This document shows positions 25,479-25,557 of a DNA stretch of 64,000 nucleotides, piece by piece. Made by a program: the position numbers and the translations under genes. The notes beneath the pieces were generated by a model. That model was given only the letters and a program-made list of their open reading frames with translations, did not search any database and was not told the origin of the DNA. How positions within the stretch are numbered: the first letter of the stretch is position 1; every line of letters begins with the position of its first letter. The DNA comes from Escherichia phage SholemSchwarzbard, in sequence record PP925840.1. One strand, 5' to 3'.

Positions 25479-25508
25479 ATACTAACACAAAGGAACCATA
25501 CTGTAAAC
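25479..25508 (-). promoter_or_regulatory. Early promoter (GTTTACA-17-TAGTAT)
   Basis: Minus strand GTTTACA at 25502-25508; 17-nt spacer; hexamer 25479-25484. Confidence 0.5.
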
Positions 25509-25537
25509 AACTTTGTGCAATCTTTGGAAAATAAAAA

Positions 25538-25557
25538 AGGACTCCCGAAGGAGTCCT
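25538..25557 (-). terminator. Terminator hairpin (stem-loop half of a stem-loop + early-promoter cassette)
   Basis: GGACTCC-TTCG-GGAGTCC followed by UUUUUUAUUUU on minus RNA. Confidence 0.6.

Follow-up and report, generated by a model that had tools for sequence, protein, structure and literature searches.

Terminator and early-promoter cassettes of a T4-like phage: known regulatory punctuation that probably also serves as patches for the exchange of promoter segments and small genes

At three intergenic sites in a 64,000-nucleotide stretch of Escherichia phage SholemSchwarzbard (sequence record PP925840.1; hereafter the window), between the ORFs 30.9 and 30.8, 32 and frd.3, and motA.1 and motA, a hairpin with a U-run is followed directly by an early promoter. 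Comparison with related genomes leads us to regard these cassettes, with high confidence, as the known terminator/early-promoter punctuation of T4-like phages that would act in addition as short patches of homology for the exchange of promoter segments and small genes. An initial annotation had pointed to terminator-then-promoter cassettes at these three loci. They are real: the hairpins fold at -11.9 to -17.9 kcal/mol, each precedes a U-run, and a terminator scan found a hairpin and T-run directly upstream of a promoter, about 30 nt before the -35 element, at exactly these three sites. The cassettes are already known, because a composite of this kind has been published as the promoter-early stem-loop (PeSL) and because the GenBank record of phage SA21RB (OL960580) annotates "T4 early promoter" and "rho-independent terminator" at these sites; they belong to a described class of element at already annotated positions.

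The window ends in a complete rIIB ORF (63062-64000, minus strand) and, to judge from this ORF together with genes 34 and 32 (Table 1), it is the final 64 kb of a T4-like (Tequatrovirus) genome in the standard orientation. Hundreds of Tequatrovirus genomes match it, the best among the matches listed at 94-97% identity and none listed being identical. Gene names follow those of the annotated T4 record, with which the window was aligned locally by blastn. Nine relatives were compared (T4, PST, SA21RB, LF73P3, LF73P1, KRT47, CJY920, HY01 and T2), and counts over ten genomes refer to the window plus these nine. The relatives were drawn from GenBank phage records; IMG/VR gave too few close relatives for a panel: the MotA protein yielded 13 loci there, and the family-A promoter pattern, with any spacer allowed, yielded 8. 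A scan of the whole window at Rfam gathering thresholds gave no match. Hairpins with an GGGCCGAAGCCC-type tetraloop recur at 4118-4149, 24647-24684, 53843-53874, 62812-62843 and 63035-63072, and some of them look like terminators in either orientation. At 4710-5285, a 288-nt unit occurs twice in tandem, with 76% identity between the copies.

Early promoters in the window are far more numerous than expected and lie on one strand. The pattern GTTTACA-N17-TANNNT has 10 matches, all on the minus strand, against 0.33 expected, and 0 of 100 shuffled versions of the window reached 10. The eight promoter positions given in the initial annotation (alt.-3, 30.8, alc, frd.1, frd.3, motA, ndd.4 and the promoter downstream of denB) were borne out, with 40334 corrected to 40335. 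Four early promoters were absent from that list: asiA, cd.2 and rnh, the last two of which are added when GTTTACT is allowed in the pattern, and 30.7, which has an N16 spacer. A minus-strand ORF with a Shine-Dalgarno sequence (SD) lies directly downstream of every site. The promoters show a GTTTACA -35 element, a TGn-extended -10 element (..TGTGG TACTAT and similar) and a UP-like A/T tract, and T4 early promoters have been described as UP/-35/TGn/-10 promoters (Hinton 2010, PMC2988021). A generic sigma-70 scan marks the TG before the -10 hexamer at the cassette promoters; over the window it gave 73 matches compared to 71.7 in shuffled sequence, and is uninformative in such A/T-rich DNA. The sites are kept at orthologous gene junctions in the nine relatives, with the exception of the 30.7 promoter, which CJY920 and T2 lack; in T2, the cd.2 and asiA promoters were not picked up. 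At the position of the cd.2 promoter, the T4 record carries the note 'early promoter Pe133295', and the ortholog of the 30.8 promoter is annotated in OL960580. One further perfect match, GTTTACA-N17-TACAAT at 44888-44917 (minus strand), is antisense within gene 34; it was rejected as a promoter and taken as a chance match because it lacks the UP and TGn features and does not reach the reporting threshold of a scan with position weights derived from the promoters. This match is kept in T4, SA21RB, KRT47, CJY920, HY01 and T2.

Table 1. Genes, terminator hairpins and early promoters of the window, with fold energies (kcal/mol) and z scores; positions in brackets in the last column are the minus-strand windows of promoters with an embedded hairpin (promoter fold window: 60 nt, from the -35 element to about 30 nt past the -10 hexamer)
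Feature	Position	Strand	Sequence and context	Fold; z
alt.-3 early promoter, family B	16699..16728	minus	hairpin: spacer pairs with SD	-23.0; -5.1 (16669-16728)
30.7 early promoter	25088..25116	minus	GTTTACT-N16-TATTAT; GGTACAGG/CCTGTACC brackets -10 hexamer	-19.4; -4.8 (25058-25116)
Gene 30.8 early promoter	25479..25508	minus	GTTTACA-N17-TAGTAT; then SD AAGGAG, ATG at 25451	
Gene 30.9 terminator hairpin	25537..25558	minus	GAGGACUCC-UUCG-GGAGUCCUU, 9 bp stem; U-run 25527-25536	-16.4; -3.5
cd.2 early promoter, GTTTACT variant	28540..28569	minus	GGTAGAG/CTCTACC brackets -10 hexamer	-18.2; -4.8 (28510-28569)
alc early promoter, family B	31865..31894	minus	hairpin: spacer pairs with SD	-25.7; -5.5 (31835-31894)
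frd.2/frd.1 early promoter, family C	40335..40364	minus	hairpin brackets -10 hexamer	-16.6; -3.6 (40305-40364)
frd.3 early promoter, family A	41060..41089	minus	TTTACA-N17-TACTAT; 17-nt spacer TACCACAAGGACTGTGG	(41030-41089)
Gene 32 terminator hairpin	41120..41138	minus	GGGGACC-CUAGA-GGUCCCU, 7 bp stem; U7 run 41110-41119	-11.9; -1.1 (alone no more stable than shuffled sequence)
Gene 32	41161-42069	minus	alignment to T4	
rnh early promoter, GTTTACT variant	44360..44389	minus	no hairpin; annotated in OL960580	
Gene 34	44435-48304	plus		
asiA early promoter	55657..55686	minus	inside asiA.1 coding sequence; no hairpin (pattern match, fold)	
motA early promoter, family A	58122..58151	minus	TTTACA-N17-TACTAT	
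motA.1 terminator hairpin	58183..58204	minus	9 bp stem; U-run 58173-58182 (terminator scan)	-17.9; -4.3
ndd.4-like gene early promoter, family C	61429..61458	minus	spacer pairs with SD GGAGGAACAG	-23.2; -6.4 (61399-61458)
Promoter downstream of denB, family A	61935..61964	minus	just past denB stop; drives ORF268-like gene 61644-61907 (predicted)	

The promoters belong to several small families. A single dispersed repeat underlying all eight initially listed copies was considered and rejected: in an in-register alignment of 95 nt, identity outside the hexamers is 36 +/- 8% between families, which is the background level, compared to 51-70% within families. The copies can thus be aligned beyond the -35 and -10 hexamers within each of three families and not across them. 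Family A comprises the frd.3, motA and denB-downstream promoters, which have in common a block of about 80 nt at about 90% identity; the sequence TTTTTATTTCAAAAATTTTTTCACAAAACG-GTTTACA-(17 nt)-TACTAT-ACAACTATCA is present in every genome examined, and further copies occur in the nrdC region and at e.8 in other genomes. The near-identity over about 85 bp that had been reported between 41040-41140 and 58104-58205 holds approximately, with 88 of 108 aligned columns identical; by our own count, about 80 nt between the T-run and +12 are about 90% identical, with a break at the spacer, which differs in part. Family B consists of the alt.-3 and alc promoters (54 nt at 96% identity; 16675-16728 for the former), and family C of the more weakly similar frd.1 and ndd.4 promoters. 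The 30.8 cassette is only 41-48% identical to the other two cassettes over 95 nt, has nothing in common with them beyond the promoter consensus, and carries a -10 element, TAGTAT, that is one position off TAYWAT. Near the alt.-3 promoter, the minus strand encodes two tandem full-length Alt-like ADP-ribosyltransferase paralogs (16728-18785, 685 aa; 18789-20885, 698 aa), which repeat at a spacing of about 2094 nt. Only remnants of the first copy are found in T4 (alt.-1/alt.-2), and PST has a single copy.

Evidence for exchange between copies comes from the 17-nt spacer of the frd.3 promoter, which has three alleles among the ten genomes. TACCACAAGGACTGTGG is found in the window, KRT47 and LF73P3 and, with 1-2 changes, in HY01 and CJY920; AGCATAAAGCTTTATGG is found in T4 and SA21RB, and TCCTTGTCCTTCCATGG in PST, LF73P1 and T2. 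Each allele recurs at another locus. The denB-downstream promoter carries the first as its spacer in 10 of 10 genomes, including the window. The second belongs to a complete cassette of terminator and promoter at about 55.3 kb in T4 strain GT7 and also follows the motA.1 terminator in LF73P3, and the third lies upstream of e.8 in KIT03 and ACG-C40. The presence of three unrelated alleles at a single site shows that the sequence of the spacer is not constrained by promoter function. Since each of these unrelated 17-mers is identical to a spacer elsewhere, promoter constraint cannot explain them, and they indicate gene conversion between dispersed family-A copies. The converted tract at frd.3 in the window and KRT47 includes a G-to-A change at about +11 and, by our own reading of the alignment, stops before the upstream A/T tract, so that it would measure at most about 50 nt.

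Each full cassette bears a recombination footprint in some relative: the spacer swap at frd.3, the loss of 30.8 in T2, and a module upstream of motA. T2 lacks the segment corresponding to 25062-25446 of the window, namely gene 30.8 and the 30.7 promoter, and its junction shows a 16-nt overlap that we read as the repeated SD/start sequence of 30.8 and 30.7. On this reading, the T2 loss of 30.8 is a deletion between the tandem 30.8 and 30.7 promoter/SD units. CJY920 lacks 24186-25435. The terminator of gene 30.9 is identical in T4, PST and SA21RB and is an annotated terminator in OL960580. At motA, LF73P1 and LF73P3 carry a 322-nt module at 58108-58130, between the motA.1 terminator cassette and motA. 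The module consists of a 75-codon ORF and a second promoter; it is flanked by two promoters, and its endpoints fall in 23 nt that these promoters have in common. Of 506 matching records, 138 contain it. In the module-bearing genomes, as well as in more distant relatives (L004, L009-L015 and L017), the promoter nearest to motA reads GTTTAC[AT]T..GCTT.AA.., unlike the family-A version of T4 and the window. This difference suggests that the T4-type motA promoter is itself a recombinant.

Variation was also observed around other early promoters. Three gene arrangements occur in the interval just past the denB-downstream promoter, all with a boundary at 61915-61922, which is seen when the window is compared with T4, T2, PST, SA21RB and LF73P3. 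The ndd.4 promoter of KRT47 has acquired the family-A -10/leader segment. Directly behind the cd.2 promoter, five of the nine relatives (PST, HY01, KRT47, LF73P1 and LF73P3) have an extra ORF213, and a deletion of 71-84 nt lies just downstream of the frd.1 promoter in HY01, KRT47, CJY920 and T2. A hydrophobic mini-ORF of 22 codons (MFAPYIMAAVMLVCLYLLIKAC) that has an SD of its own was noticed between the frd.1 promoter and frd.1, at about 40232-40300 (minus strand); this stretch is aligned through in T4 and missing in HY01, KRT47, CJY920 and T2. Between denB.1 and denB there is an extra 109-codon ORF (62471-62800, minus strand), overlapping the start of denB. An equally long ORF occupies this place in KRT47 and HY01, which show no indel there. 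T4, PST, SA21RB, CJY920 and T2 lack about 200 nt at 62553-62760.

To relate the promoters to differences in gene content, we aligned the window to about 50 kb from the nine relatives, which yielded a catalogue of 27 early-region indel events with a length of 40 nt or more. At the level of bases, a boundary falls within 30 nt of a promoter core in 7 of these 27, compared to about 6% expected per event (p=7e-4). Viable indels must respect gene boundaries, so a null model based on gene junctions is fairer than one based on bases. At the level of junctions, an indel boundary was found in 7 of 12 promoter-bearing and 20 of 59 promoter-free junctions (odds ratio 2.7, one-sided Fisher p=0.10). The proposal that the cassettes coincide with gene-content breakpoints in related phages therefore passes only weakly. 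For nineteen of the 27 events (about 70%), every boundary is more than 45 nt away from an early promoter; these include the group I introns of nrdB and td, mobE, segG, an HY01 insertion located at a homing-endonuclease gene in nrdA, and ORFs inserted precisely at junctions that lack a promoter. The enrichment of indels near promoters could reflect selection for insertions that are expressed rather than a recombination mechanism. The suggestion that the cassettes are substrates of recombination gains from the spacer alleles common to different loci and from the footprints at the cassettes, and does not gain from the junction enrichment, which is not significant. Taken together, a recombination role is supported qualitatively and by sequence, with the cassettes as one contributor among several in the region.

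One interpretation of these data is that the cassettes are regulatory punctuation only. Their similarity would then result from common descent and from constraint on very strong promoters, and inserted ORFs would be found behind promoters because they survive only there. Consistent with this, promoter-bearing junctions are not significantly more prone to indels than others, the cassettes occupy the same loci in all ten genomes, and many indels are precise insertions of ORFs or homing endonucleases at promoter-free junctions. Common descent and constraint do not account for identical 17-mers at different loci in different genomes, or for indel endpoints that fall within repeated promoter/SD segments and overlap by 16-23 nt, and we consider this interpretation unlikely. 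Alternatively, exchange could be carried out by a dedicated system, either a protein that acts site-specifically on palindromic spacers or endonuclease VII acting on cruciforms, in the manner of a mobile element. Two of the spacer alleles are indeed palindromic (TACCACA/TGTGGTA and CATAAAG/CTTTATG), and Arbiol et al. (PMC2839356) leave a targeted recombinase or helper protein open. The motA spacer folds only weakly, we found no evidence that ties a recombinase to the cassettes, and the endpoints vary from case to case, comprising the spacer only, the -10/leader or the SD/start, which fits homology-driven recombination better than a fixed cut site. A dedicated system is accordingly very improbable. 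Chance matches of an A/T-rich consensus in an A/T-rich genome, for which the near-random yield of the generic sigma-70 scan might be invoked, have a negligible probability, being already refuted by the excess and complete strand bias of the T4-specific pattern and by the retention of the sites at orthologous positions in nine relatives.

Under the reading that we favor, punctuation combined with homology-driven exchange, each cassette would form the boundary between two transcription units in the early minus-strand gene blocks. Based on sequence and on the literature, the GC-rich hairpin and U-run would end the upstream transcript (30.9, 32 or motA.1), and the T-run and A/T-rich tail would take the position of a UP element. 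About 30 nt further on, a sigma-70 promoter of the T4 early type (UP, GTTTACA, 17 nt, TGn, TAnnnT), which is predicted to be strong, and a short conserved leader with a Shine-Dalgarno sequence would restart expression at the next gene (30.8, frd.3 or motA). The family-A blocks of about 80 nt, which have the same orientation, may occasionally be paired by the very active homologous recombination of the phage. Between distant copies only non-crossover gene conversion would be viable, which would explain why the frd.3 promoter of this phage bears the spacer of the denB-downstream promoter. Between neighboring units, crossovers in the -10, leader or SD segments could delete or insert the small ORFs that lie between promoters, as may have happened to 30.8 in T2, to the 75-codon ORF before motA and to the ORF269/ndd.6 variants after denB.

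Most of the promoters without an upstream terminator have a hairpin of their own. The initial annotation had listed five promoter-only copies; their positions stand, and the implication that they are free of hairpins does not, as most carry a strong hairpin inside the promoter. Folds at alt.-3, 30.7, cd.2, alc, frd.1, frd.3 and ndd.4 range from -16.6 to -25.7 kcal/mol (z -3.6 to -6.4), and when ranked against 3659 60-nt windows of the early regions, 7 of the 12 promoter windows fall in the most stable 1.7%. The 5' arms come from the spacer/-10 region and the 3' arms from the leader. At alt.-3, alc and ndd.4, and more weakly at 30.8, the promoter spacer forms the 5' arm and pairs with a 3' arm that includes the Shine-Dalgarno sequence; at 30.7, cd.2 and frd.1 the two arms flank the -10 hexamer. 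Four positions of the ndd.4 stem vary among nine genomes, and pairing is retained in all of them through G-U. Hairpins that sequester the Shine-Dalgarno sequence are known from e, soc, 49 and I-TevI of T4 (Uzan and Miller 2010, PMC3014915), and those at alt.-3, alc, ndd.4 and 30.8 resemble them. In these four hairpins the 5' arm precedes the presumed start of transcription, and they could form in read-through transcripts only. The T4 cases involve late promoters in early read-through transcripts (PMC3014915), whereas the internal promoters of the window are early and any function of their hairpins is putative. By analogy, such a hairpin would gate the translation of read-through transcripts. 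We speculate further that these are start-site gates with exchangeable spacers: in read-through transcripts the spacer would pair with the leader/SD and either block translation or shield the GGAG from RegB, transcripts that begin at the promoter itself would lack the 5' arm and be translated, and 17-nt spacers moved by gene conversion would retune promoters. This proposal is tentative, and the odds are against it.

Compared to the early promoters and terminators of T4, the elements occupy the corresponding gene junctions, the gene 32 terminator and the motA promoter among them, with no difference of substance; to judge from the alignments, they are the same T4 elements in a slightly diverged genome (about 94-97% identity). 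The PeSL was first described in phages RB49 and phi1, where promoter and terminator activity and the formation of mini-circles were established by experiment and where crossovers map to the AT-rich region, the loop or the interval from the -10 box to the SD (Arbiol 2010, PMC2839356). Like the window's elements, the RB49/phi1 PeSL is described there as a composite promoter/stem-loop repeat flanking small ORFs, with stem-loops between the -35 and -10 elements or over the -10 box that recall the copies first listed as promoter-only. Unlike them, the RB49 elements have near-perfect TTGACA/TATAAT promoters and polyG/polyC stems. In the same text, the authors regard the T-even elements as analogues rather than homologues of the RB49 PeSLs, and mini-circles are shown only for RB49/phi1. 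The PeSL of PST and T4 is described as TTTACW-N17-TAYWAT with a stem-loop just upstream, with copies that are conserved over roughly 100 bp and are situated near insertions, deletions or replacements that distinguish close relatives; the exchange of ndd.4/.5 and ORF268/269 between these phages is the example of Fig. 6A (Comeau, Arbiol and Krisch 2014, PMC4122927). The window agrees with that account in its stem-loop, AT-rich upstream region, TTTACW-N17-TAYWAT promoter, and SD and start at the 3' end, and its denB-ndd interval (61429-61935) lies in the region of the Fig. 6A example. The available text names no locus besides the ndd/ORF268/269 region, and the 30.8, frd.3 and motA cassettes are not named in it (PMC4122927). 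Nor does the available text of the two PeSL papers (PMC2839356, PMC4122927) mention the exchange of spacer alleles between distant copies that is seen here. The morons of lambdoid phages are similar in that a small gene with its own promoter and terminator stands between resident genes; they differ in that their regulatory signals are not thought to supply the homology for insertion (PMC2839356).

The early regions of this phage are thus a stretch organized by known terminator/early-promoter units, to which our analysis adds modest detail. The cassettes account for a minority of the gene-content differences in the region. At the same time, the three spacer alleles at several loci, the deletion of 30.8 in T2 and the ORF module upstream of motA are clean examples of exchange at the level of sequence, and they support the published idea that regulatory repeats help to shuffle small accessory genes in T4-type phages.
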